A DNA stretch of 64,000 nt, taken from NCBI GenBank assembly GCA_964016885.1, contig OZ024740.1, positions 71,486,001 to 71,550,000 on the forward strand, written 5' to 3'. Of this stretch, positions 4,520 to 22,224 are shown one piece after another; the stretch's first letter is position 1, and each line of letters starts with the position of its first letter. Made by a program: the position numbers and the translations under genes. The DNA is from Eledone cirrhosa (lineage: Eukaryota). Below the pieces are notes generated by a model. It ran no database searches and was not told where the DNA came from. It was given only the letters and a program-made list of their open reading frames with translations.

Positions 4520-5430
4520 GAATTTAACAATGAATTAATTTCAATCAATAGAATATTCGCCATTATTTTGAATCACATCTTGCCATTTATCAGATAGCTT
4601 GTTGATTCCTCTTAAGTAGAATTCAGCTGGTTTTGAGCTCAAGAAGTTTTCCTCAAATGTTTTCACCTGATCTTCTTGAGAACATTTTTTATATTCAGAG
4701 CATTTTGTAGAGAATGAAAGTGATGGAAATCACTTGGTGTAAGGTCTGGTGATTATGGTGGATGGGGTAGAAGAGATCAGCCTAAATCCAGTATTTTTTC
4801 CTGTGTGATTCTTGTTGAATTCTTTGCGTTATCATGGAGAAGCACAACATTTCTCCTGTTGACAAGTGCGGGGTGTTTTCTTAGAAGATTTCCATGCAGC
4901 TGTTGAGAGTATAAGTCTGCATTGAGTGTCTGATTGTGGTTTAAGAATGAATAATACCATGGTGATTCCACCATATACACAGCATAACTTTTCTTCCATG
5001 AAGCTCTGTCTTTGGGGTAGGCTGCAGAGATTTATCCTTGTCAGTCCACTGCCTTGTGTTGTACATTGTCGTAAAGGCACATTTTTCATCACCTGTAATA
5101 ATATTCTTGAGAAATGGGTCATTTCACTGCCTTGAAAGAAGACTTGTCGCTTTGAATATGCGATCTTCCTTATTATTCTCACTAAGTGTATGAGAAACCA
5201 AAACGCCCAGCTTGCTTACTTTTACTATCTTTTCCAAGTGCCGGCAGGTTGTGGATTGGGATGTGTTGAGGTCAAGTGCTAATTCTCAAGTACTTTTGCG
5301 CAGATTTCATTCCATCAATTCTCTTAAAGCATCTTGATTGAGGTCAGATGAATGTCCTGGTCTGGGTTCAGCTCTCAATGATGTATCCCCCGAACGAAAC
5401 TTTGAAAACCAGTTTCGGACTTGGTGGTCA
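4520..5430 (-). mobile_element. second mariner transposase, degenerate
   Basis: NHNQTLNADLYSQQL...RRNVVLLHDNA and a downstream P..PDL.PSDFHHF-like motif. Confidence 0.82.
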
Positions 5431-5434
5431 AGAT

Positions 5435-5763
5435 ACACAGGAAAATATGGAGCTGAAGCACCTTTCTATTAAATATAGGTTTAGAAAGGCCTTACAGGAT
5501 GCAATGGATGAAAGGGGAGACAAGTTACATTCATACAACATAGAAGACAATTGGAAATTTTTACATGTCAACTTATTGTGAACTACTGATGAAATTTATG
5601 GCTGGAGTAAAGCACCAGCCAGACAGAGGGTGACCTGGTGGTGGAACAGTACAGTGAGTAGAGCCATTAAAGCCAAGAGACTGACATGGAAAGACTGGAC
5701 AAATGGGGGTAGCAGATGCCTAACCAGGTAGCTAAGAAAGAAGCTAGATGACAGGTATACATA
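5435..5763 (+). mobile_element. RTE LINE fragment, left part, split by the Gypsy insertion
   Basis: EDNWKFL...RVTWWWN; sequence resumes at 18000 across the TSD cata. Confidence 0.85.
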
Positions 5764-6372
5764 TATAACGGCGGCGAAGATTCAAAACCGAATCTGAGCT
5801 CTCCCGCCTCTGGGGCAAGCCGTGGTAAGTTGTTTACGCTCAAGAGACTAACCCCTTGGGAGAGGCTAAACACAGGTCAGAGGTGTTTATGCCTGACAGA
5901 AAATAGGTCAGAGGATATATCCATCTTTCTGACTTGTTTACGCTTGGCAAACTAATCCCTTGGGAGACTCTAACCAAAGTTCAGAGGATATATCTATCCT
6001 TCTAGCTTTAACTCTTATAAATACAGGGGTTGTTTACGCCCCGACAGAAAAGGACAAGACAAGTCGCATTTACAAGCTCTCACGAAAAACCAGTCTGTCA
6101 CTTATTCTCACCTTCCTGGCTGATCGCTGACTCCTACTACTAAAACAAGCAAATATACTGATACGCACACGCATTCATAGTGAGTTCACACTGTTTGTAT
6201 TTTCACACACACCATTTCTGTTTATACATATTGTATCTTTCGGATACAGTACAAATTATATTATAACCATATTCTGTGATACTTGTATTTAAGTGGCTCG
6301 AGAGCCTCCAAATTATTGTACGAATATTTCGTGTTATCGATTTTATCATTCAATATTCAAATTGAATATTGT

Positions 6373-9300
6373 TATAGCGGAATGCTAGCGCGTATGAATG
6401 TAACAAGGAGACATGGTTTGTGTGTATAATATTTAATCAACAATTTAACAGTATAGTTGACATGTCAATGAATAAACGAAAGAATGAAGCAAAGTTAGTA
6501 GTTACCGTTTTGATTGCCAGGCAAACGCGGCTGGCAGAAGACGCCTGGCGAAGGCCAGGCGCCGGAAGGGCAAATGAGAGGGTAAGAACTTAAAGTTGTT
6601 AGTTTTATAGGGTTCTGACCGGAAGTTACAGAAAGGGTTCTACTTCCTGTCTAGATGGTGTTAATCTATTGGGGTTGTGAGTGTCACAACCAGGGAGACA
6701 ACGCCTGCTACATAACCTCCCGCCAGAATTTTAGAATATAAAAATCGAATGAAATATGTATGCAGCAGGTTGGCGAGAATGTTGTAACAGGCATGAAAAT
6801 TACGACAAAAAAAATAATGTTTGCAAAAATCAATGATAGATATCAAGGTAGCCAACCGCTCTTGGCCAGAGAACGACTGGACATCTATCTATCCATCACC
6901 CAAAGATACAATGTAATAAAGTAAGAGAAGAGCTCAAAGTTCAAATGTACAAAATATAGTTCACAGGTGTGCAATCACATGACAGCAGGAAAGAAAGTGT
7001 GTTCCAGAGAATGAATGCAGGTGGTTTCTGTTCTGTGGTATATCGTGAAATTTCCAACCTCCGAATGGATTTTCTCACAGGAAGAGTGCTGCAAAAATAA
7101 ATTCTCTGGCTTGTTCTGCTGGTTTTGGTTGTTGGTGAAGCTGTGTTGCTGTTGATGTCTCGCGGAGTGAGCGTATTCGGTGTTTAAATTCACAGTAAAA
7201 AAAAAAATTTTTTTTTCAGAAAAAATGAGTTGCGCAAAGTGTTAGAAATAACAGCCGAAGTTGATGGTCGATGTTGAGAATGCGTTGACCTGGAAGAGTC
7301 AAGAGGTCAGCGACCAAAGAAATAAGCATTCTGAATAAACGCGCAGTTTTCAACGGCAAATTTACGTGGTAAATTTTTAAACCGGCAAATAGGAGAATAT
7401 AGCTTAAGGCTGAAGAATCCTTGGCGAGAAACGTTATCTCTGGCGTGCGGCTATCTCTGTGAGTCAAGATATCTCCGTGAGTTGAGAATTTGTGCTGCCT
7501 ACACGTGCCAATACAAGGTTAAGTTAGGTTGAAAAAATAATATTTCTAACGCGCGAGAAAATGATAGTGCAAGTGTGAAAGTGACAATGATGAAAAAGAA
7601 AGGCTTCACTTAGCATAATTATTGGTGTGAACTTTTGAAAAAAAAACTTGAACGATGAAGAAAACGATGAAAAAAAAAGGCAATGGTTCATCGAAAATAA
7701 ATGTTCCTGTTGAAATGTTTTTAAAAAAAAAAATATCAAATTTCTTTTTTTTTTTGTTTTGAAAGTGTTCGTTGTAAGAAACGAGAAACATATATATATA
7801 TATCGTGGAATGCGACAGTTAGTTGATGCGTGAGAGAAAAAGTCTGTCTGAACGCGAATTTCACATGTGCGTGGTGTGTTCGTTTCTTGGAGAAACACAT
7901 ATATATATACAGCAAACTGCGACAGTTAGTGGATGCGTGAGGGAAAAAGAGTGTCTGCACGAAAGTTTCACATGTGCGTGTGTGCGTTTCTTTGACTGAG
8001 TATGTTCATAGTTTGTCAATAAATTTGCTGTGTATTCGTAATGTTACTCACACAACACCAGATTCTGCTATTTTTTCTTTTTTCGGGGTGACCACTTATA
8101 ACAATGAACGGCTGCGTGTTCGTATCACGTCAGGGTCAGGTCACCAATATATCGGGATACTGGGTTGTATGAATGTGTAGCGGTTGTCTCCCTTGTTTTG
8201 ATTGGGATCTAGACGGGAAGTGGAACCCTTTCTGCAACTTCCGGTCAGAGCCCTATAGAACTAACAACTTTAAGCTTCCTTTCTCTCTTTGCCTTTTCGG
8301 CACCAGGTCGAAGAGCCTCTCATTTGGCTCTGCCATTAATTTGGCCAACAGGCGCCTGGCCTTAGCCAGGCGCCCTCTGCCAGCCGCGTTTCCCTGGCAA
8401 TCAAAACGGTAACTACTAACTTTGTTTCATTCTAACATCTATCTTTGACATGTCAAGTATTCTATCTACCGTTAATTAAATATTATATACACAAACATTG
8501 TCTCGTTTTGTTACATTCATACAACCCAGTATCCTCGCTATATTGGTAACCCTGACGTGATACGAACACGCAGCCGTTCATCGCTATAAGGGTCACCCCC
8601 AAAAAAAGAAAAAAATAGCACATCTGGTTTTGTGAGTAACATTACGAATACACAGCAAATTTAGCGACAAACTATGAAAATACTCAAGGACACGCACACA
8701 CGCACATGTGGAATTCGCACAGACATACTTTTTCTCTCACGCATCAATTAACTGTCGCATTTCACCAATATATATATATATGTTTCTCGTTTCTTACAAC
8801 GAACACTTTCAAAACAAAAAAAAAAATTTCACGATATATATATATGTTTTTCGTTTCTTACAACGAACTCTTTCAAAACACACAAAAAAAAAGGGGGAAA
8901 TTTGATATTTAAAAAACATTTCAACAGGAACATTTATTTTCGATGAACCATTGCCTTTTGTTCTTCGTTTTCTTCATCGTTCAAGTTTTTTTTTTTTTTT
9001 TTTTTTCAAAAAGTTCACACCTATAATTATGCTGATTGAAGCCTTTCTTTTTCATCATTGTCACTTTCAAAATTGCACTATCATTTTCTCGCGCGTTAGA
9101 AATATTTTTTTTTCAACCTTGTATTGGCACGTGTAGGCAGCATAAATTCTCGATTCACTGAGATGTCTCTACTCACAGACAGCCGCACGCCATTTATCAC
9201 CAGGGATTCTTCAGCCTTAAGCTATATTCTTCTATTTGCCGGTTTATAAATTTACAATGTAAATTTACCGTTGATAACCGCGCATTTATTAAGAATGCTT

Positions 9301-10596
9301 ATTTCTCTGGTCGCTGGCCTCTTGACCCTTCCAGGTCAACGCATTCTCAACATCGACCATCAACTTCGGCTGCTATTTCTAGCACTTTGCGCAACTCATT
9401 TTTTCTAAAAAAAAAATTTTTTACTGTGAATTTAAACACCGAATACGCTCACTCAGCGAGACAACAGCAGCAGCAACAGCAATATAACAGCAACAGCAAT
9501 ACATCAACACAGCTTCACCAAAGCCAGAGAATTTATTTTTGCAGCACTCTTCCTGTGAGAAAATCCATTCGGAGGTTGGAAATTTCACGATATACCACAG
9601 AACAGAAACCACCTGCATTCATTCTCTGGAACACACTTTCTTTCCAGCGGTCATGTGATTGCACACCTGTGAACTATATTTTGAACTTTGAGCTCTTCTA
9701 TTACTTTTACTTTATTACATTGTATCTTTGGGTGATGGATAGATGGATGTCCAGTCGTTCTCTGGCCAAGAGCGGTTGGCTACCTTGATATCTATCATTG
9801 ATTTTTCCAAACATTCTTTTGTCGTAATTTTCATGCCTGTTACAACATTCTCGCCAACTTGCTACATATTTTCATTTCGATTTTTATACACTAAAATTCT
9901 GGCGGGAGGTTATGTAGCGGTTGTCTCCCTTGTTTTGATTGGGATCTAGACGGGAAGTGGAACCCTTTCTGCAACTTCCGGTCAGAGCCCTATAGAACTA
10001 ACAACTTTAAGCTTCCTTTCTCTCTTTGCCTTTTCGGCACCAGGTCGAAGAGCCTCTCATTTGGCTCTGCCATTAATTTGGCCAACAGGCGCCTGGCCTT
10101 AGCCAGGCGCCCTCTGCCAGCCGCGTTTGCCTGGCAATCAAAACGGTAACTACTAACTTTGTTTCATTCTAACATCTATCTTTGACATGTCAAGTATTCT
10201 ATCTACCGTTAATTAAATATTATATACACAAACAATGTCTCGTTTTGTTACATTCATACAACCTCAGTAATCTCGCTATAAATGTAACAGGGAGACATGG
10301 TTTGTGTGTATAATATTTAATCAACAATTTAACAGTATAGTTGACATGTCAATGAATAAACGAAAGAATGAAGCAAAGTTAGTAGTTACCGTTTTGATTG
10401 CCAGGCAAACGCGGCTGGCAGAAGACGCCTGGCAAAGGCCAGGCGCCGGAAGGGCAAATGAGAGGGTGAGAACTTAAAGTTGTTAGTTTTATAGGGTTCT
10501 GACCGGAAGTTACAGAAAGGGTTCTACTTCCTGTCTAGATGGTGTTAATCTATTGGGGTTGTGAGTGTCACAACCAGGGAGACAACTCCAGCTAAA
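6373..10596 (-). mobile_element. non-autonomous LTR element A (non-coding interior)
   Basis: 3' LTR 6373-6712; 5' LTR 8148-8175 plus 10285-10596; TSD ttgt; PPT ggcgggagg next to 6713; tRNA-Trp complement 8105-8146. Confidence 0.92.
8176..10280 (+). mobile_element. non-autonomous LTR element B, inserted in the 5' LTR of A
   Basis: LTRs 8176-8542 and 9912-10280; TSD aatg; PBS from 8544; PPT 9901-9909; interior homologous to A. Confidence 0.94.
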
Positions 10597-10772
10597 TTGT
10601 TATAATAAAATAAACTTTGTAACAACACAATCCTGGTATTATTCTTTACATTGAAAACCATCATACCAACAATTCATTCTCTCCACTTATCGTTACAACT
10701 ACACAAATATTCCGTTACAACCGGTGACCCCGTAAAACAGACACACAACCTTCTGATCATCCACTACAAACG

Positions 10773-11876
10773 ATGTCTCTAGCACACGACGATTCATCTA
10801 CGGCAGAAATGGTAGTCAGGGCGGCATTTACATTAAGAATTCCACCATTCTGGGTGCACGATCCAACACTGTGGTTCGCGCACATCGAAGCGCAGTTCGC
10901 ATCGAACCGGATCGTTACACATGTCATCGGTTCGATGTCTCCGGAGATTATGAATGAGGTTCGAGAACTCATTTTAGCACCACCCGGCTCTGTGTCATAT
11001 GACACATCTAAAACAACATTAGTTAAGCGGACGTCGGAATCGCAGCAGAAGCGCTTGCACCAGCTCCTTATATCGGAGGAATTAGGAGATAAAAAGCCGA
11101 CACAATTCCTAAGGCGAATGAAGCAGCTCCTGGGAGAAAATAAACTCCAGGATGAAATTTTCAAGCAACTCTTCCTCCAGCGTTTGCCTTCTGCCACACA
11201 AGTTGTACTAGCATCCAACAGGGAGTCCACCACCATAGAAGAACTCGCCGAGCTGGCAGATAAGATCATGGAGGTACCACATCCGCACTCAACTTTAGCG
11301 AATGTGACGCCAGCCGTACCTCCCACCAATCCTTTCCTTCAGCCCTCCAGTGCCACAGAGATGCCCAATCTACACCTGTTACTGGCACAGCAAGCAACAC
11401 AGATACAGGCCTTGACGCAACAAATTCAGGCCTTGTCACTGGGCAACCCTGCCACGCGTCGGTCCAACAGTCGAACTCGCCGATTTGATGGTCGCTCAAG
11501 AAGTCCGAGCGCATCTCGGGATTCACCAGAAATGTGTTGGTACCACCAAAGATTCGCGAGACGAGCGCGAAAGTGCAGTCATCCCTGTTCATTTGTCGAA
11601 TCAGGGAAACGACACAGCCAGAAACTGAATGCGACGGACGTTTCTGGCCCTCATAACCAAAGTCGCCTATTTTTCATTCAGGATCGCATCACAGGCACGC
11701 GTTTCCTGGTCGACACCGGTGCTGAAGTCAATATCATCCCCGTTTCCTGCGTTCCTAGAAAAAGGAGAGAGACACCAGCCTGTGAATCACTCACATATTC
11801 CGACCTAAGGAGAACAGTCCCTGACACTAAATTTGGGACTACGCCGCACTTTCCAGTGGGTATTCGTTGTGGCTAA
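10773..11876 (+). pseudogene. gag: Gypsy gag plus aspartic protease
   Basis: IPPFWVHDPTLWFAHIEAQF N-terminus, CWYHQRFARRARKCSHPC (CHCC) knuckle, FLVDTGAE protease; frame breaks after about 11780. Confidence 0.92.
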
Positions 11877-13148
11877 GCTGCCGACCCCTATTTTAGGAGC
11901 TGATTTTCTTCAGAACTTCTCGCTGCTAGTGGATCTGAAAATCCAACGACTCAGTGACAACTCCACTGGTCTCGCTGTGCGCGGAATAGCCGCTAGGACA
12001 GCCACAGTCAATCCAGTCATTTCACGATCGACAACAACAACCCGGCACAACCACATCATCAACAAACACCCAGACGTAGCTCGACCACTATTCAACGCTT
12101 GCCCTGTAAAACATGACGTCACACACCACATAAAAACACACGGCCCACCTGTCGCTGCACGACCTAGAAGGCTACCACCAGACCGGCTGAAGTCCGTCAA
12201 ACAAGAATTTCAGCACATGCTGGATCTCGGCATCATACGTCCGTCCAGCAGCAACTGGTCCTCACCCATTCACTGTGTACCCAAGAAGTCGTCGAACGAC
12301 TGGCGAATCTGTGCACTGAACAACTGCACCGTTCCTGACTCTTATCCAGTGCCTCATCTACAGGACTTCTCTAGCTCGCTGCACGGGGCTCGCATATTTT
12401 CGAAGCTCGATCTTGTGCGAGCTTACAATCAGATACCCGTTGAGCCCGCAGATATTCCAAAGACCGCCGTCACAACACCCTTTGGAATGTTCGAATTTCT
12501 GCGTATGCCTTTCGGTTTGCGAAATGCAGCGCAGACATTCCAGCGATTCATCGATACAGTCACCAGAGGTCTACCTTTTGTATACGCATACATTGACGAC
12601 TTACTGGTGGCCAGCAGCTCCGATGAAGAACATGAGAAACACCTGGATATCCTATTCACACGTTTGCGTGAATACGGAATTGTTATCAACCCCAGCAAAT
12701 GTGAGTTCGGAGTTGCGTCCCCTCATTTTTTGGGACACATCATTGACAAAGAATGGTATTCGCCCACTTAAGGAGAAAGTCAAATCCATCATTGATTTTC
12801 CACAACCAACATCTCTCCGCAAACTGCGAGAATTTCTTGGCCTGGTAAACTTTTACAGAAGATGTATACCCCACTGTGCAGAGACAGCCCAACCACTCAC
12901 AGATTTGCTGCGGCAGCGTACAACCAAAAACGCAAACATCAAGCTCGGCGAAAAAGAATGTACCGCTTTCGCTGAGTTGAAGAACATGTTGTCCGAGGCT
13001 ACAATGCTGAGTTACCCCAAACCTGACGCCCCAATGTGTTTATTGACTGCATCCGATTTCGGAGTTGGAGGTGTGCTTCAACAAGCGATTAAAACCCGCC
13101 GAAACTAAGTACAGCACATTCAGTCGTGAATTATTGGCAGCATACCTT
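11833..13148 (+). pseudogene. pol: Gypsy pol: RT and start of RNase H, frameshifted
   Basis: [57 protein letters not shown]. Confidence 0.94.
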
Positions 13149-15374
13149 TATAGCGCCCCCTAGACAGGAAGTAGCTGGAGTTACTTCCTGTTGAGGTTAC
13201 AGAACCTTCTTTGTGACTTCCGTCCAGGGAACTATAAAAGGAGAGAGCTGAAAGCTATCTCTCTCTCTTTTCACCTTTCGGCCATCCGCGTTCCGCCGAA
13301 AGTATACTCTCTCGCTTCCTGACTGTGAAAAGGTAAACACCTAACTTTCTTTCGTCGTGAAATCACTAGCCAACATGTAACACAACAACTTAATCACGGC
13401 CTGGCAACATCTCCGCCAGTAGACCGTGCCTCCTGAATTCCTTAATTCGTTGTTTCATCTCTCTTGGCATGTCAACTATTCAGCTCTACTCAGCTCAATC
13501 TTCGTAAATAAATATTGTACATACAAACCGGTGTAATGTTAATTGGTGACCCCGAGGAAAAAATAATAGGATCTGGTGTTGTGTGAATATGGAAAAAAGA
13601 AAATTAATTAGCAGTATTTCAAAAAGAAAAAATTCCTCTAACAACATTCCGCATGGATTTTTTCCTCCGAAATTGTCTACAACGAAAAATAGGAGTAATC
13701 TTTTTCTCAACAGCAAACAAACAAGAACAAATTTTGCTCTTCACCTCACCTGTTTACATCGTTTACATGTGTTTCACTCACTGGATATATCCTTCGTTCT
13801 TCTCACAACGAATACTCAAAAAAAGACTTGGACTCCTGTATTCTTTCTTATATTCAACATGTCAATTTTGATGAACATCACAGCTCGTTTACTCATTCAA
13901 CTAAGCCTTATTCGCTACTTTTTCATCACTTTCACAAAAAAATTAAACTCTCGCCATATTTGTTATACAAAGTGAATATAGCCTTTCATTCTTTTTCATC
14001 ATATTATCACGTTCACACAAATTTTTCAAAATGACCGCCACGACCTGTTCCACTATCATTTTCTCGCGCAATAGAAATATTTTTTTTTTGTTTATTCAAC
14101 TTGACTTTAACCTTGTTTCGGCACGTGTGTGGGAGCACACATCTCGACTCACTGAGATAACACACGCCATAGATAATGTTTCTTGCCAAGAATTCTCCAG
14201 CTTTAAACTATATTCTCCTATTTGCCGGTTTAAAAATTTACCACGTAAATTTGCCGTTGAAAACTGCGCATTTATTCAGAATGCTTATTTCTATGGTCGC
14301 TGGCCTCTTGACCCTTCCAGGTCAACGCGTTCTCAACATCGACTATCAACTTTGGCTGTTATTTCTAGCACTTTGCGCAACTCATTTTTTCTGGGAAACT
14401 TTTTACTGTGAATTGAAACATCGAATAGGTTACCTCACTCCGCGAGACAACAACAACACAGCTTCATCTTTGCTTTATCAACAACCAAAACCAGCAGAAC
14501 AAAACGCAGAGAATTTATTTTTGCAGCACTCTTCCTGTGAGAAAATCCCACCGCCTTCGGAGGTTGGGAATTTCACGTTGTACCACAGTCCAGAAACCAC
14601 CTGCATACATTCTCTGGAGGACACACTCTCTTCCTTGCTGTCATGTGCTTACGTACCTGTTAACTTTATTTTTGAACATTTGAACTTTTTTTAATAACAA
14701 TGTTCGAGCACGTTTCTTTGCTCCTTTGACCTCTTCTTTTAGGTTGATTACATTGTATCTTTGTGTGATGGATAGATAGATGTCCAGTCGTTCTCTGGCC
14801 AAGAGCGGTTGGCTACCTTGATATCTATCATTAATTTTTGCATGCTCATTTTGCTATTTGCTTGCTCATGTTTTGTTCATTCATGTTCTTGTACCTTTTG
14901 CCTTGCTCCTCGTGTTCTCGCTATAATGATTTCATTTGGTCATTCGACTTCTCTTCTGGGAGGGGAGTCCTGTAGCGCTCTCTAGACAGGAAGTAGCTGG
15001 AGCTACTTCCCGTTGAGGTTGCAGAACCTTCTTTGTGACTTCCGTCCAGGGAACTAAAAAAGGAGAGAGCTGAAAGCTATCTCTCTCTCTTTTCAGCTTT
15101 TGGCTTCTGGCCTTCGGCCATGCGGGTTCCCCCGAAGGTATACTCTCTCGCTTCCTGACTGTGAAAAGGTAAACACCTAACTTTCTTTCGTCGTGAAATC
15201 ACTAGCCAGCATGTAACACAACAACTTAATCACGGCCTGGCAACATCTCTGCCAGTAGACCGTGCCTCCTTAATTCGTTGTTTCATCTCTCTTGGCATGT
15301 CAACTATTCAACTCTACGCAGCTCAATCTTCGTAAATAAATACTGTACATAGAACCCTCAGTCACCCTGTTATA
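13149..15374 (+). mobile_element. non-autonomous LTR element C, inserted in the Gypsy RNase H
   Basis: LTRs 13149-13542 and 14971-15374; TSD cctt; PBS tggtgaccccga at 13544; PPT gggaggggag 14958-14967; removing it restores ELLAAYLAVKHF. Confidence 0.94.
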
Positions 15375-16870
15375 CCTTGCTGTCAAGCATTTTTGACACA
15401 TGCTAGAAGTCGTGTGTTCACGATATACACCGACCACAAACCACTAGTGTACGCGTTCAATGCCAAGCCTGACCGACACTCACCCAGGGAGGTCCGCCAT
15501 CTGGACTTCATTTCTCAGTACACTACTGATATTCGGTACATTAAGGGTGCCACCAACTCAGCAGCTGATGCCCTATCGCGCATGGAGCTTAACGCAATCC
15601 ACACCACTGCCACTATCGACCTCCAGAAGATTGCAGCGGATCAACAGAATGACGAGGAACTGCTGCAACTCCGGAAATCATCCTCGAAATTGCAGGAATG
15701 CCCGATGCCCTCTTCTTCGGGTTATATTTGGTGCGATATCTCCACAGGCCACGCGCGCCCATACGTGCCCCAGAAACATCGACGCGACGTTTTCTCGGCA
15801 CTGCATTCTCTGGCTCACCCTGGCGTCCGCGCCTCGCAGAAACTGATGGTTGCCCGCTTTGTGTGGCCCAATATCAACAAGGACACCCGCGAATGGGCTA
15901 GGAACTGTATCGCGTGCCAGAAGGCGAAAATTCACCGGCACATCAAAGCCCCGATCGGTTCTTTCGCAACACCTGATGCACGGTTCCAACATGTGCACAT
16001 AGACATCGTTGGACCTTTGCCTCCTTCTCAGAACTACACTCATCTTCTCACCTGTGTCGACCGATTTTCTCGCTGGCCAGAAGCTTTTCCCCTGACGGAT
16101 ATTACTGCGGAAACTGTCGCCAAAATGCTAGTGTTTCACTGGGTTTCGCGTTTCGGCACACCCGCGACCATCACTACGGATAGAAGACATCAGTTCGATT
16201 CGCACCTATTTACCGAGCTGACTCGTCTCCTCGGGTGAAAACACATCCGTACAACAGCGTATCACCCTGCCGCTAACGGCATGGTAGAACGCTTCCACCG
16301 CCAGCTAAAAGCATCTATCAAGGCTTACGAAGACTCCACTAACAGGTTCGAATACCTCCCACTCATTCTTCTTGGTATTCGTTCCACTGTTAAGGAGGGA
16401 ATCGGACATTCTCCGGCTGAAATGGTGTATGGCACCGTACTCACTCTACCCGGACAAATGATCGCTCCTGTTTCGCCACAAGAACTTCCAGACCCAACAA
16501 AATATGTGCACCGTTTACGGTCATCGATGTCACATCTGTCTCCTTCAGCCCCTAAACAAAAGCACGTTACTTCACACATACCAAAAGACATCGATACATG
16601 AACGCATGTTTTCGTTAGAAATGACGGTATTCCATCGCAACTTCGTCCGCCGTATTCCGGGCCCTATAAGGTGATACAGAAACGCCCTAAGTATTTCGTC
16701 CTTGACTTGAACGGTAAATGAAATACCGTCTCCATTGATCGTTTAAAAAAAAGCGTTGATAGAACAGGAATTGCCACCAGTACCCACCGTTTCTCCAGCA
16801 GACTCGCCAACAACTTTGCCCGACACACCAAATCTGGAAGAACAGTCCGATGGCCCACGCGATACGTACA
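15375..16870 (+). pseudogene. pol: Gypsy pol: RNase H end and integrase, with stops
   Basis: [14 protein letters not shown]...CIAC zinc motif, HIDIVGP, ITTD, NGMVERFH. Confidence 0.94.
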
Positions 16871-17283
16871 AGTTTATCGGGTAAGTACAAATTATGCATC
16901 TGGTCGACATTTCGGCTAATTCGTACATTTCAACGAATCGGCCTATTTCTGTGGTCATGAACTATTGCTACACACAAATCAATTAACTCTGTGCATCACC
17001 CACATCAAAAGAACATTTTTCCGTTTCTATGAAATGAACGAACTTTTAATCAACAAACTTTTTGTACGAACATTTTCAATTTTATGTAACATCACAGTAC
17101 ATTTTTCTGCATGTAAATTTCTTTTGCTTTGCATGTTTTCTTTCATTTCTCCTGTTTGTAAATGACTTTCATGTGTTTTTTTTTTTTACTGATTTTCTTC
17201 AACAACACACCTAGTCATACCTATCTTCATTTCACATGCACCTAGATCGTTCAATCTTAGCTTTCTCACTGGAAGGGGGGTAC

Positions 17284-17999
17284 TATAACGGCAGCGAAGA
17301 TTCGAAACCGAATCTGAGCTTTCCCGCCTCTGGGACAAGCCGTGGTAAGTTGTTTATGCTCAAGAGACTAACCCCTTGGGAGAGGCTAAACACAGGTCAG
17401 AGGTGTTTACGCCTGACAGAAAATAGGTCAGAGGATATATCCATCTTTCTGACTTGTTTACGCTTGGCAAACTAATCCCTTGGGAGACTCTAACCAAAGT
17501 TCAGAGGATATATCTATCCTTCTAACTTTAACTCTTATAAATACAGGGGTTGTTTACGCCCCGACAGAAAAGGACAAGACAAGTCGCATTTACAAGCTCT
17601 CGTCACGAAAAACCAGTCTGTCACTTATTCTCACCTTCCTGGCTGATCGCTGACTCCTACTACTAAAACAAGCAAATATACTGATACGTACACACGCATT
17701 CATAGTGAGTTCACACGCACCATTTCTGTTTATACATATTGTATCTTTCGGATACAGTACAGATTATATTATAACCATATTCTGTGATACTTGTATTTAA
17801 GTGGCTCGAGAGCCTCCAAATTATTGTACGAATATTTCGTGTTATCGATTTTATCATTCAATATTCAAATTGAATATTGTTATAATAAAATAAACTTTGT
17901 AACAACACAATCCTGGTATTATTCTTTACATTGAAAACCATCATACCAACAATTCCTTCTCTCCACTTATCGTTACAACCACACAAATATTCCGTTACA
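17284..17999 (+). repeat. Gypsy 3' LTR
   Basis: tataacgg...ccgttaca, preceded by the PPT. Confidence 0.95.
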
Positions 18000-19010
18000 C
18001 ATAGCTTGGAAAGAGGCTGAAAAAAGAAAGTTTACCAATGTCTTGCAATGTCAGGATCAGAGACATGAAATATCCTGCATTACAAGGCAGGGTGTCACTG
18101 TGAATCAGGATGTTGTTGGAGAAAAGTGTATTAGAAATGACACTGGTGCCCTTAGCACTACCAATGCTTAAAAGAGGCCTGAAAATGATACTATGAGAGG
18201 CTAATGAATGTAGTGAATGAATGGGAGGAAGAGAGACTTTCAATTTACTCAACAGGGTTCAACAATTGAAATTGACAGTTATTGGGTCAAAGGAGCAATT
18301 AAGGAGATGAAGAATGGTAAAGACGCAGGACCATGCTAAAAGCATTGAAAGAAGTAGGAACTGAACTAGTAATTCACATATTCAATCAGATATAGGGGGT
18401 CATACCCAATGATGGCAAAGCAGTACAATCATAAATTGCTACAAGGGTAAAAGTGATGCTCTAGAAAGAAGCAACAGAGAAATAAAACTAATGGATCAAG
18501 TTATGAAAGTGATGGAAAGAGTTCTAACATAGCAAATTAAGGAAAGAGTCAAATCAGATGAGATGCAGTTTTATGCCCGAGAAAAGTAGTACAACAACAA
18601 GAGAAGTTCCTAGTCAATAATAAGCTATTACATTTAGCTTTTGTTGATTTAGAAAAGGCCTTTGACAGAGTACCTTGATCTGTTATCTGGTGGTGCTTAA
18701 GAAAATTAAGTATAAGAGAGAGTAAAAAGTGAGTTCAGTTAGGAATTCAAGGTACATGTAGAAGTTCATTAGGGCTTGGTTCTCAGCCCACTGCTGTTCA
18801 TTATATAGTGTTCCAGGCCGTAACAGAGGAGTTGAAGACTGGCTGTCCGTGAGAACTTCTCTTTGCTCATTAACTGGTCCTTATAGCTGAATTCATAAAA
18901 GAACTAGAAAATAAGTTCTGAATGTGGTAACAGAAATTACAATCAAAAGGGCTGAGAGTAAAACTTAGAAAAAACTAAAGGGTCGGTAAGCAGGAAAGAT
19001 GACAGGATCC
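18000..19010 (+). mobile_element. RTE LINE fragment, right part, degenerate
   Basis: NCYKGKSDALER, LAFVDLEKAFDRVP, LSPLLF. Confidence 0.85.
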
Positions 19011-21294: not shown

Positions 21295-22224
21295 GTCAGC
21301 ACATCAGAAAAGAATTGTTTTGTAGAGTTATATCTACACTTCATGTCAAAACCTACTTTCAGTATGTATTATTGAGGTAAATAATATCTGTTAAGAGAGT
21401 GGAGCCATTTGAAGTAGTTTAATGGGAGGCTATAACTTCTTGGAGAACACTGAAGCTAAGTGGATGCAATATATTTTGCTTTCATTTTTTTTTGCACTGT
21501 ATTAGCCAAGTAAGAGAAAAGAAAACCTCCCCAGGCTTCTGCCACAGAGTTGTTTGTTGATATCTTTCAAGAAAGAATGAGTAAAATGAAATTATGTATA
21601 TAGAACTTCTCCATCATTTGATGTACTTTGGATAAAACTACTGTTTTGGTTTAAAGTCATCTGTTTATTGAATAAAATTACTTCATTTTAAAACATTATT
21701 TCATAATCCACATTCTGAAAATACAAGAACACATTTTTTTAAAATCATTATTTCTAACACTAAGTGGATTGGTTTATTCAATTTCAAATGAAATTTAATT
21801 CTTACAATTCTGTGATTAGAAAATCACAAGATCAGCCTCAACTGACCTTATAAAGGTTGGAAGGGAAGAATGGCACCAACTTTAGACCAACATTTTCAAC
21901 AATTCAACTAAATATCTTACATTTTCAAGACTATTAGGATAGGGAACTAATATACATATAAACATATATAAGAAGTTTGATGCTGCAAGACAAAGAATGC
22001 ACAGTCCCTAAATATTAAGTATTTATATGTATGTAAGGTCCCATAACTCCTAATGGAGTTGTAGGGATGGCGTATTGAGATACAGCGTTTCTAGGGTGTC
22101 TTTTAAAAACTTTGCAGAGCCTATCTCCACTCCAGGTCTGAATACAGTGGCTTTCTTCCAGAGAAGGATAGAGAGAGTGACAGAAAGGAAGTGAGAAAGA
22201 GATATAGAGGAAGAATCGGCTCCA

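Follow-up and report, generated by a model that had tools for sequence, protein, structure and literature searches.

PBS heteroduplexes have been used as markers in retrovirus and Ty1 genetics, and yeast Ty1 has a hot spot of change that is one or two bases wide and lies at the U5/PBS border. Work on this border that appeared under Gabriel et al. in PNAS in 1996 and Mules et al. in MCB in 1998 reportedly describes the hot spot and links it to heterogeneous RNase H cleavage and to non-templated additions. According to the relevant passages of two published accounts, the first strand transfer can take place between two RNA molecules, whereby R/U5 of one is joined to U3 of the other (PMC6894440, PMC3187697), and copying of the plus-strand PBS from the tRNA belongs to the standard scheme as outlined in the second of these (PMC3187697). 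The recombination scheme for reverse transcription, as drawn in the Fig. 2 legend and text of one account, yields two identical LTRs (PMC6894440), and LTR dating takes both LTRs as identical at insertion (PMC9744471).

Retrotransposons in a 64,000 nt stretch of the Eledone cirrhosa genome (hereafter the window) and their relatives elsewhere in that genome resemble these systems and also differ from them. The family has the mosaic make-up known from recombination between co-packaged RNAs of retroviruses and LTR retrotransposons: U5 moves apart from U3 and the interior, and whole U5 haplotypes pass between copies and subfamilies; at the family level, the same U5 haplotypes occur with different bodies and linkage between blocks is low. 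However, the two LTRs of a copy are often not identical: the last 31 alignment columns are discordant in 30 of 67 pairs, including 6 of the 21 pairs with identical bodies, and at least a third of insertions have LTRs with unequal U5 ends, the form of the PBS predicting which ones do. As with the retroviral PBS heteroduplex, PBS forms coexist, which is expected if each cycle remakes a mismatched duplex, but here the mismatch appears to pass the 18-nt PBS into the last 25–55 nt of U5. Like the Ty1 hot spot, the family may have an excess of changes next to the PBS that stems from reverse transcription and affects the 5′ LTR side; the patches found here, however, reach 8–11 and 16–20 nt into U5, many of the differences are haplotype swaps, and the phenomenon is of genome scale. 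Full-text literature searches returned no description of PBS-predictable unequal LTR U5 ends, which would be a variant of known retroviral-type recombination.

Four elements in the window, termed A, B, C and D, each possess two LTRs and a 4-bp TSD. The outer host element, D, is on the + strand. Its 5′ LTR is in two parts, of which the first (5764–6372) begins TATAACGG and follows the TSD CATA at 5760–5763; the second (10601–10719) ends in CCGTTACA and is followed by a PBS-like sequence, GGTGACCCCG. The internal region of D (10720–17283) has gag (DUF7041), RT, RNase H and integrase, with a coding region interrupted by frame changes and by the insertion of element C. The 3′ LTR (17284–17999; TSD CATA at 18000–18003) is uninterrupted, and empty sites for A are visible in it.

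Element A (6373–10596, − strand) is nested in D, with the TSD TTGT at 6369–6372 and 10597–10600. Its 3′ LTR (6373–6712) is 340 bp long with the outer U5 tip at 6373–6397, and its non-coding internal region (6713–8147) has the PPT at the 6713 side and a tRNA-Trp-type PBS with a spacer T at the 8147 side. A small internal duplication is present in this PBS, at about 8119–8146. The 5′ LTR of A is the reverse complement of 10285–10596, its main part (minus-strand start TTTAGCTGGAG), joined to that of 8148–8175, the last 28 nt, which hold the inner U5 tip; the two parts are separated by the insertion of element B. The latter (8176–10280, + strand; TSD AATG at 8172–8175 and 10281–10284) has a 367-bp 5′ LTR (8176–8542) with a variable U5 tip at 8518–8542. 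A putative poly(A) signal, ATTAAA, is at 8475–8480 and a GU-rich stretch at 8498–8512; the presumed U3/R/U5 limits of B are placed by motifs. The PBS region of B (8544–8575) is 32 nt long and complements the 3′ end of the genome's tRNA-Trp apart from three mismatches, at positions 5 and 10, which mark the non-canonical family form, and at position 19. A non-coding internal region (8576–9912) carrying the PPT, GGCGGGAGG, at 9901–9909 leads to the 368-bp 3′ LTR (9913–10280; outer U5 tip at 10255–10280). Element C (13149–15374, + strand; TSD CCTT at 13145–13148 and 15375–15378) is nested in D; its 5′ LTR (13149–13541) starts with TATAGCGCCCCC and ends in the tip GGTGTAATGTTA, its PBS, TGGTGACCCCG, starts at 13544, and its 3′ LTR (14971–15374) starts with TGTAGCGCTCTC and ends in the tip CTCAGTCACCCTGTTATA.

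A, B and C are non-coding derivatives of a tRNA-Trp-primed Ty3/gypsy-type retrotransposon. The PBS sits 1 nt past the LTR end and was assigned on the basis of a tRNA-Trp gene in the same genome (L176:1443–1516). An ORF search of 6373–10596 found no ATG-initiated frame of at least 90 aa. The 3′ half of the B internal region has its match in coding relatives downstream of their integrase gene; two of these relatives (L073 and L065) have an integrase ORF (Integrase_H2C2, rve) followed by the 3′ interior of B, the PPT and the LTR start. The 2.1-kb size, the 340–400-bp LTRs, the lack of an ORF, the 4-bp TSD, the tRNA PBS and the PPT, as well as the PPT, LTR start and 3′ interior held in common with coding relatives, are all features of non-autonomous, LARD/TRIM-like deletion derivatives of Ty3/gypsy elements. 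The elements differ from these in that most LTRs end in TA (CGCTATA) and not CA, as the initial annotation had stated. Canonical TG...CA termini are absent from nearly all copies, which have TG...TA instead (TGTAGCG...CGCTATA); CA-ended LTRs are rare (the 5′ LTR of L013 and both LTRs of L102).

The 5′ and 3′ LTRs of each element in the window were aligned pairwise and the alignments split into start, middle and last 25 columns, with bodies of about 300–370 columns compared for A, B and C. The pair of A differs at start positions 2, 7 and 10, at 3 of about 296 middle columns and by 7 substitutions in the last 25; that of B has 0 start, 2 middle and 3 last-25 differences, and that of C has differences at 3 of the first 12 columns, at 36 in the middle (two indels, of 17 and 8, among them) and at 11 of the last 25. 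Tip enrichment is absent from the D pair (1, 30 and 1). From these alignments of A, B, C and D, the strings and mismatch counts first reported for the LTR pairs of A, B and C are correct.

Across the genome, loci were chosen by exact motifs. The B-family sample consisted of 110 loci, of which 38 were dropped as having no two recognisable LTRs or TSD; a further 5 of the 72 remaining pairs were removed for having no TSD, which leaves the 67 pairs that have perfect 4-bp TSDs. The same rule removed 10 of 40 loci from one further sample and 18 of 40 from another. The mismatch rate along these 67 pairs is non-uniform with a peak at the U5 tip, the density being 0.22% in the first 20 nt, 0.36% at 21–110, 0.89% at 111–340, 2.06% at 341–371 and 6.88% in the last 25. 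In cell counts, the last 25 columns have 91 mismatches in 1322 cells (6.9%) and the remaining columns 188 in 21961 (Fisher odds ratio 8.6, p = 1e-44). The same comparison in 14 A-type pairs gives 45 of 350 cells vs 100 of 4155. It had been suggested that both LTR tips are hypervariable, and this holds for the U5 end; family-wide, it does not hold for the LTR start, as the first 20 nt of B-family LTRs, with 3 of 1340 cells mismatched, are as stable as the body. The corresponding value for the A type is 12 of 280 cells vs 2.4% in the body. The window copies A and C do show an excess of differences at the LTR start.

No other non-repetitive part of the element comes close in variability to the last ~25 nt of the LTR, beside the PBS. 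A 15-nt interval at the tip has 53 haplotypes among 72 copies, with a median of 6 for intervals of the element and 30–44 in poly(A) runs. Nearest neighbours have about 11 differences in 1852 other columns, yet differ at 2–5 tip positions. The variation is limited to two patches flanking the conserved motifs CAGTA and CGCTATA; 29 pairs differ in the patch nearest the PBS, and 1 pair differs in the next patch alone. Mismatch tracts have their anchor at the PBS side and thin out inward, and in L042, L089 and L066 they run from columns 257–344 through to the LTR end. Changes in the last 7 nt are confined to the 5′ LTR in 5 copies and to the 3′ LTR in 1 TSD-flanked copy (L034). Tip discordance is found in roughly 30–45% of intact copies, very young ones included, and the unequal-tip pattern is common to hundreds of copies in the genome.

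The PBS occurs as a tRNA-exact form (60 genome hits), as the two-mismatch family form (294 hits) and as hybrids, and tip concordance follows this division. Among the 67 copies, none of the 9 with an exact tRNA-Trp complement is discordant vs 34 of 58 others (p = 9e-4). Independent samples with matched ascertainment gave at least 2 tip mismatches in 3 of 30 copies with a canonical PBS vs 8 of 22 others (p = 0.037), and, with body mismatches limited to 2 or fewer, 1 of 24 vs 5 of 12 were discordant. Combined, the discordance is 3 of 39 for the canonical PBS vs 34 of 80 for other forms (p = 1.0e-4), and for young pairs 1 of 33 vs 21 of 56 (p = 2.2e-4), although canonical-PBS copies may differ from the others by traits besides the strand of origin.

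On balance, the U5 ends of the two LTRs appear somewhat more apt to have been unequal already when the DNA copy was made, by way of a heteroduplex over the PBS and U5 that stems from unlike RNAs. RNAs of unlike copies would be co-packaged in one particle, and minus-strand strong-stop DNA primed on one RNA would carry the U5 of that RNA. Later, the minus strand may run past the PBS of its template RNA into residual U5 RNA; given such an overshoot into leftover U5, the 5′ cDNA end would become a heteroduplex at plus-strand transfer. Its plus strand would consist of the tRNA-copied PBS and the donor U5, and its minus strand of the RNA-templated PBS and the recipient U5. Replication or repair after integration would then resolve the two strands, with plus-strand descendants having the canonical PBS and matching LTRs and minus-strand descendants keeping the mismatched family PBS and a 5′ tip that differs from the 3′ tip. 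Over many generations, and with copying errors at the template end, the tip could be shuffled and diversified at a much higher rate than other parts of the element. We infer both the overshoot and the heteroduplex from genomic copies; since the mismatch reaches into U5, the minus strand would have to copy past the PBS.

Exchange of tips between co-packaged RNAs, one of the mechanisms offered by the initial annotation, has the support of the tip haplotypes. In window element B the 5′ U5 is of the L108 type and the 3′ U5 of the L110 type, and both complete haplotypes are carried by other copies on both LTRs. In three elements with A-type LTR bodies (L160, L166 and L169), one of the two LTRs, but not the other, has the most common B-type tip. 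One-sided alleles are found again elsewhere in the genome for 3 of 4 of those on the 3′ LTR and 1 of 5 of those on the 5′ LTR. Linkage between LTR, U5 and interior is low (r2 0.03–0.05 vs 0.15 within blocks), which indicates that the B family recombines. In a nearest-neighbour test of whether the 5′ tip tracks the interior lineage, 5 discordant copies agree and 3 show the reverse, and for these three the heteroduplex model has to assume a further template switch close to the leader.

Another proposal of the initial annotation was error-prone synthesis near the primer. As the main cause, i.e. errors made over the ~20 nt that follow tRNA priming and a second time when the plus strand reaches that template end, with RNA exchange secondary, it is unlikely, but copying errors at the PBS/U5 junction probably contribute in addition to the heteroduplex. 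The variable zone, of about 22 nt, adjoins the primer, and 58 of 68 tip alleles are found in a single element. Of these, 30 are one change and 15 two changes away from a shared allele, with a broad substitution spectrum and 19 indels, and such private changes are most frequent 8–11 and 16–20 nt from the U5/PBS border. Two copies (L012 and L031) have rare tip alleles that occur on their own two LTRs but at no other place in 3 Gb. Of the one-sided 5′ alleles, those of L088, L079, L045 and window element A (4 of 5) are unique in the genome; for A, the 24-mers of the outer tip (3′ LTR) and the inner tip (5′ LTR) each occur once. Because of these one-sided and both-LTR private alleles, new mutation, or absent parents, must be invoked besides exchange, and the parents of young insertions may indeed be missing from this individual. 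However, strong-stop errors are expected on both LTRs, and therefore error-prone synthesis alone fails to account for the discordance and its link to the PBS; many discordant tips are, moreover, complete haplotypes of other copies. The D family, whose PBS-like sequence matches the same tRNA-Trp, shows no tip hypervariability, and 18 of 30 D-family LTRs have the same last 16 printed bases.

It is improbable that the tips changed mainly after insertion, whether through a mutational hot spot or through conversion of LTR ends by other copies or free strong-stop DNA. Discordance does grow with body divergence (6/21, 9/27, 8/11, 4/4 and 3/4 by rising class; Spearman 0.38), and part of it could therefore arise after insertion. 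U5-anchored tracts would also fit nested strong-stop DNA donors, all of which share the U5 end, and a foreign or private allele can sit on the 5′ or the 3′ LTR. But the pairs without a mismatch in 365 body columns that differ at the tip already do so at 1–4 positions, the differences are multi-site haplotype swaps, and conversion should ignore the PBS form, whereas discordance among the young pairs goes with it.

Assembly artefact, ordinary decay and end repair all fit poorly. Mutagenic repair of cDNA ends at integration, which had also been put forward, is hardly credible: the outer U3 start has 3 changes in each of window elements A and C, and in the C-type copies L116, L120 and L128 it differs from the inner LTR near positions 8–11, but symmetry between both ends would be expected, the B-type outer U3 start is as stable as the body, and in the sampled copies the PBS-adjacent inner tips are as variable as the outer ones. 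An assembly or polishing artefact at repeat borders is most improbable, for although the elements are high-copy repeats and the window tips are known from the assembly alone, rare alleles are identical on both LTRs of one copy, 67 of 72 pairs have perfect 4-bp TSDs, the variation is restricted to two patches, and dependence on PBS form is not expected of random error.

A wider reading of the heteroduplex model can be offered tentatively. Perhaps insertions unequal from birth are routinely produced by minus-strand overshoot, the PBS form records the inherited cDNA strand, and the 20-nt U5 tip is a fast-evolving, freely exchanged module; the excess of mismatched-PBS lineages over tRNA-exact revertants, five to one, might then be due to selection against exact PBSs. 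The tip pattern would provide a genome-scale readout of the priming RNA, of the minus-strand run past the PBS and of the inherited cDNA strand, i.e. of reverse transcription steps otherwise studied only in cell-culture vectors. PBS form set against LTR concordance would be a simple marker of the inherited strand, applicable wherever the PBS of a family mismatches its tRNA.

It should be pointed out that the early warning of bias in LTR-based dating was justified. In the 67 B-family pairs the 56 columns at the U5 end, which make up 14% of the alignment, contain 131 of the 282 mismatched cells, and otherwise identical pairs have up to 4 differences; ages would therefore be overestimated unless the U5 end is masked.

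Positions 5760–18003 contain a nest of four LTR retrotransposons. The outermost, element D, is on the plus strand, with a 5′ LTR in two pieces (5764–6372 and 10601–10719) and an intact 3′ LTR (17284–17999); its LTRs read TATAACGG...CCGTTACA and the target site duplication (TSD) is CATA. D is a Ty3/gypsy-type element whose interior carries gag (DUF7041), RT, RNase H and integrase (Integrase_H2C2, rve), with frame changes that interrupt coding. Element A (6373–10596, minus strand, TSD TTGT) lies within the 5′ LTR of D, and its empty site is visible in D's 3′ LTR. Element B (8176–10280, plus strand, TSD AATG) lies within the final 28 nt of A's 5′ LTR; because B inserted there, the inner tip of A is found at 8148–8175, remote from the remainder of its LTR. 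Element C (13149–15374, plus strand, TSD CCTT) is located in the RNase H region of D.

A, B and C are ~2.1–2.2 kb apiece and have related interiors, and A and B contain no ATG-initiated reading frame of at least 90 aa. In all three a polypurine tract (PPT) precedes the 3′ LTR and a primer binding site (PBS) is found 1–2 bases beyond the 5′ LTR. Coding relatives exist (L073 and L065): downstream of an integrase reading frame they share with B the 3′ half of the interior, the PPT and the start of the LTR; thus A, B and C are non-autonomous deletion derivatives. Placement of U3, R and U5 is by motifs only: a TATA-like box near LTR position 75–82, ATTAAA at 8475–8480 and a GU-rich stretch at 8498–8512. 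Unusual relatives were also seen. One of them, L211 (G000 C1:259614000-259623530, element at 4835–9226), is derived from the coding partner by deletion and measures 4.4 kb; its PBS is reduced to 8 nt and joined directly to an 878-aa open frame, its two LTRs have the same tip, and in place of a 4-bp TSD its flanks carry a duplication of 15 bp and a further 8 bases. Head-to-tail LTR-interior arrays are present at G000 C2:47390705-47401421 (L147–L153), C7:65387200-65396397 and C14:21370171-21464595, with periods of ~1.67, 1.8 and 5.7 kb, and three single copies (L026, L086 and L035) have a PBS instead of a TSD after the 3′ LTR.

The two LTRs of each element in the window were aligned pairwise, and differences in the start, the middle and the last 25 columns were counted apart. 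The A pair differs at positions 2, 7 and 10 of the start, at 3 of ~296 middle columns and by 7 substitutions in the last 25 (the alignment output shows 8, one spacer base having been included). The B pair shows 0, 2 and 3 differences in the three segments, the C pair 3 in the first 12 positions, 36 middle columns including indels of 17 and 8, and 11 in the last 25, and the D pair 1, 30 and 1. The tip strings and counts that the initial annotation had given for A, B and C are thus correct.

The family of B provided the main sample. A search with B found 29 further full copies, and a 26-mer over the PPT and LTR start had 413 exact genome matches; among the 100 matches listed, 80 of the 93 new ones were taken. 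The resulting 110 loci include 72 with two full B-type LTRs 1.5–2.1 kb apart, 67 of them with a perfect 4-bp TSD; the other 38 loci, left out, are of other LTR subfamilies or lengths, truncated, or longer coding relatives. In the 67 TSD pairs the mismatched cells amount to 0.22% in columns 1–20, 0.36% in columns 21–110, 0.89% in columns 111–340 (two long indels included), 2.06% in columns 341–371 and 6.88% in the last 25 columns. The last 25 columns compared with columns 21–371 give a Fisher odds ratio of 8.6 (p = 1e-44); in this sample the mismatch rate along the LTR, proposed earlier as a check, is far from uniform. Thirty of the 67 pairs are discordant, i.e. their 5′ and 3′ tips are unlike, within the last 31 columns. 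Even among the 21 pairs that have no mismatch in 365 body columns, six are unlike at the tip, four of these at 3–4 positions.

The A-type family behaves similarly: in 14 TSD pairs there are 45/350 tip mismatches vs 100/4155 in the body, and no pair is free of tip mismatches. The effect is weaker in the C-type family, where one tip is common to most copies and the raw count of 38/225 includes two of nine pairs with wrongly set ends. The family of D shows no comparable tip variability, with 18 of 30 LTRs identical over the last 16 printed bases. The unequal LTR tips are thus confirmed. The initial annotation had called both ends of the LTR hypervariable; this holds at the U5 end but not at the LTR start, which is stable in B's family (3/1340 cells) and shows at most weak variability in A's (12/280). 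The effect is therefore a property of the U5 end in this group of elements.

The B-type LTR ends in ...ACATTCATAC, patch 1, CAGTA, patch 2 and CGCTATA, followed by one spacer T and the PBS. Patch 1 occurs as AACC, ACCC, AACCC, AACCTC, ATCCC and other forms, and patch 2, of ~4 nt, as TCCT, ATCT, CCCT, TTCT, TTAT and others. In 15-nt windows over the entire 2.1-kb element, the tip window has 53 haplotypes in 72 copies, compared with a median of 6 and with 30–44 for poly(A) runs. Copies that differ at ~11 of 1852 non-tip columns are unlike at 2–5 tip positions. The 144 LTRs carry 68 tip alleles, 58 confined to one element; from the nearest shared allele these are one change (30), two (15) or more (13) away. 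The changes are located in patches 1 and 2 and are of every kind (C>T 25, T>C 11, A>T 11, A>G 8, A>C 8, C>A 7, and 19 indels). The conservation of CAGTA and CGCTATA within this variable zone suggests that selection acts on them, and CGCTATA is presumably the integrase recognition end.

Several simpler regularities did not hold. A fixed rule, with a TATCC form on the 5′ LTR and a TAATC form on the 3′ LTR, was apparent in the first 29 copies and failed in the unbiased sample. The tip hardly covaries with the rest of the element (mean r2 0.03–0.04). An 8-mer shared by A's outer tip and the complement of the tRNA-Trp D-arm, noticed by eye and post hoc, was judged compatible with chance, and tRNA templating of that tip was rejected. 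A short-R model with transcription starting at the conserved CAGT was dropped because the sole poly(A) signal is ~50 nt upstream of CAGT; polyadenylated retrocopies of the LTR, sought to map the RNA 3′ end, gave 0 matches.

Many discordant pairs consist of two complete, known U5 haplotypes, including linked markers 30–50 nt upstream of the tip. The haplotype of B's 5′ LTR is that found on both LTRs of the copy L108, and the haplotype of its 3′ LTR is that on both LTRs of L110. Three further copies (L160, L166 and L169) carry the commonest B-type tip on an A-type LTR body, on one LTR only. These findings support tip exchange between co-packaged RNAs, one of three mechanisms suggested at the outset. 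Tracts of mismatch have their anchor on the PBS side: 29 pairs are unlike in the patch nearest the PBS, and a single pair in the next patch alone. Tracts reach the LTR end from as far as column 344 (L066), 269 (L042) and 257 (L089), and of five pairs discordant at a polymorphic block near column 140, four are also unlike at the tip. Recombination occurs everywhere in the family, with a mean r2 of 0.16 inside the U3-R block vs 0.03–0.05 between U3-R, U5 and interior.

Exact whole-genome matches were also counted for individual tip strings. One-sided 3′ alleles have 3 (L105), 3 (L011), 4 (L002) and 1 (window A) matches, and one-sided 5′ alleles 9 (L040) and 1 each (L088, L079, L045 and window A). 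Rare alleles present on both LTRs of a copy have 2 (L012, its own pair only), 2 (L031) and 4 (L059, in two elements). The family thus both imports alleles that already exist and acquires genuinely new ones, although the parents of the apparently new alleles could instead be absent.

The PBS of these elements is complementary to tRNA-Trp, whose genes in this genome terminate in ...GCGTGTTCGAATCACGTCGGGGTCA. The majority PBS (TGGTAACCCTG...) has two mismatches to the tRNA, and its 32-mer context has 294 genome matches. A minority form (TGGTGACCCCG..., 60 matches) is the exact complement, and there are also hybrids. In standard reverse transcription, as outlined in PMC3187697, the tRNA serves as template for the plus-strand PBS and the genomic RNA as template for the minus-strand PBS. 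If a heteroduplex covers the PBS and the adjoining U5, descendants of the plus strand are predicted to have an exact PBS and identical 5′ and 3′ tips.

In the first sample, U5 discordance of any degree was seen in 0/9 copies with an exact PBS and 34/58 with another PBS (p = 9e-4). Further, independent samples of both PBS classes were drawn by a common criterion, a 32-mer over the LTR end and PBS. For the exact PBS, 40 of the 60 matches were used, leaving out seven already sampled, 12 of 13 in a C14 array and one ~46 nt from another; 30 passed, and 10 had no second LTR or TSD. For the other PBS, 40 new loci were taken among the 100 matches listed, of which 22 passed and 18 failed. At least two tip mismatches were present in 3/30 exact-PBS and 8/22 other-PBS pairs (p = 0.037), one of the eight (L259) having a wrongly set end; among the three discordant exact-PBS pairs, one is a case of 7-nt duplication. 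For bodies with no more than two mismatches the counts are 1/24 and 5/12 (p = 0.010). The pooled samples give 3/39 vs 34/80 (p = 1.0e-4), and young pairs alone 1/33 vs 21/56 (p = 2.2e-4).

It is inferred that the unequal tips stem from a PBS and U5 heteroduplex formed in reverse transcription of unlike co-packaged RNAs. Each particle would hold two RNAs, in many cases from copies that differ. The minus-strand strong-stop DNA, started on RNA 1 and bearing its U5, would jump to RNA 2; such intermolecular transfer is established for retroviruses, and reviews place it first among the steps of recombination in LTR retrotransposons (PMC3187697, PMC6894440). At the 5′ region of RNA 2 the minus strand would copy the PBS and, as an overshoot, any U5 RNA spared by RNase H. 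Plus strong-stop DNA, made up of U3, R and U5 of RNA 1 and the tRNA copy, would then anneal over PBS and overshoot with mismatches, and the minus strand would go on along this template. The 3′ LTR would be a homoduplex with RNA 1's U5, and the 5′ LTR a heteroduplex over the PBS and a variable, PBS-anchored length of U5. Segregation or repair after integration would have one of two outcomes: a tRNA-exact PBS with concordant tips, or the PBS of the RNA with discordant tips. Such a heteroduplex would explain why mismatches form a gradient and are anchored, why haplotypes are swapped, and why discordance is associated with PBS form. New patch alleles may arise at the overshoot end, by non-templated additions or mismatched-end extension, or in the first bases after priming. 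Against it stands that, by nearest neighbours, the 5′ tip matches the interior lineage in five discordant copies but the 3′ tip in three; for these three a further template switch close to the leader is required.

Error-prone synthesis after priming, another of the original suggestions, is a possible contributor. As the sole cause it would explain the private alleles, but it leaves the discordance and its tie to the PBS unexplained. Conversion after insertion, e.g. by free strong-stop DNA, may contribute and is consistent with PBS-side anchoring, but is at odds with the dependence on PBS form at matched youth. Tip discordance grows with body divergence (Spearman 0.38, p = 0.001); this follows in part from tracts that extend into R, and post-insertion change may add to it. 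Assembly error at the tips appears very unlikely, as rare alleles recur on both LTRs of a copy, TSDs are intact and the pattern is tied to PBS form. Four runs with the same species label, consisting of short low-coverage contigs or RAD-seq reads and compared with 8100–10400, contain the family at high depth, but in pieces too short to tie a tip to this locus. Mutagenic end repair at integration, the remaining early proposal, does not explain the data, since the inner tips are variable and B-type copies have a stable outer U3 tip.

A heteroduplex at the PBS is classical. Ty1 reportedly has a mutational hot spot at the U5/PBS border, which is the nearest parallel to these tips. Mosaic LTRs via intermolecular strand transfer, and pervasive within-family recombination, are described in PMC6894440; the explicit endpoint of the scheme presented there is two identical LTRs, whereas the pairs described here are unequal at the U5 tip. 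The literature search turned up no account of LTRs that differ from birth, although the subscription retrovirology of the 1980s–90s was mostly outside its scope and may hold an earlier description. The combination of mismatch extending into U5, 30–45% of LTR pairs unequal at the tip, and a PBS form that predicts inequality was not found described in the literature searched. LTR dating, as set out in PMC9744471, assumes two identical LTRs. The early warning of a dating bias is borne out, in that the last 56 columns carry 131/282 mismatched cells in the 67 B-type pairs, and the last ~50 nt should be masked when these LTRs are used for dating.

Several features of the PBS region should be pointed out. 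The B-type region 8544–8575 is complementary to 32 nt of the tRNA-Trp 3′ end (tRNA gene L176:1443-1516), beyond the usual 18; besides the PBS mismatches at 5 and 10, the sole difference is at position 19 (A in the element, T in the tRNA complement). This position corresponds to tRNA nucleotide 58, a methylated base at which plus-strand synthesis normally stops, and the difference looks like an old primer read-through with misincorporation, fixed in the element. The two-mismatch PBS outnumbers the exact form genome-wide in the same 32-nt context, though each cycle should remake the exact form; the explanation is either preferential retention of the minus-strand version or a smaller number of descendants from copies with an exact PBS. 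The PBS of A (8119–8146, minus strand) reads TGGTGACC then TGACCCTGACGTGAT, a small internal duplication of the PBS start, as if tRNA-copied and RNA-templated versions had been joined out of register. In the leader at 8576–8605, ~45 nt past the LTR end, the LTR-end motif is repeated (CATCGCTATA) and is followed by AGGGTCACCCCC, which is able to pair with the PBS start, and then by a long A-rich purine run; the segment may form a leader hairpin.

Other repeats are found elsewhere in the window. Two blocks of 84-bp tandem repeats with their flanks are duplicated ~16.3 kb apart at 94–99% identity (19395–21141/36036–37510 and 21486–22783/37847–39106), which looks like a segmental duplication. There are also 40-bp and 39-bp tandem-repeat arrays and another repeat pair ~3.4–3.7 kb apart, at 79–95% identity (43209–43573/54639–55106 and 54584–56059/57970–59750); the repeat pair may be a further LTR element. 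A short repeat of ~100 nt, with a tRNA-like box (GGATTTGAACTCAGA), is present in six copies, at 22221, 23416, 38584, 41683, 49343 and 51096, and is probably a SINE family.
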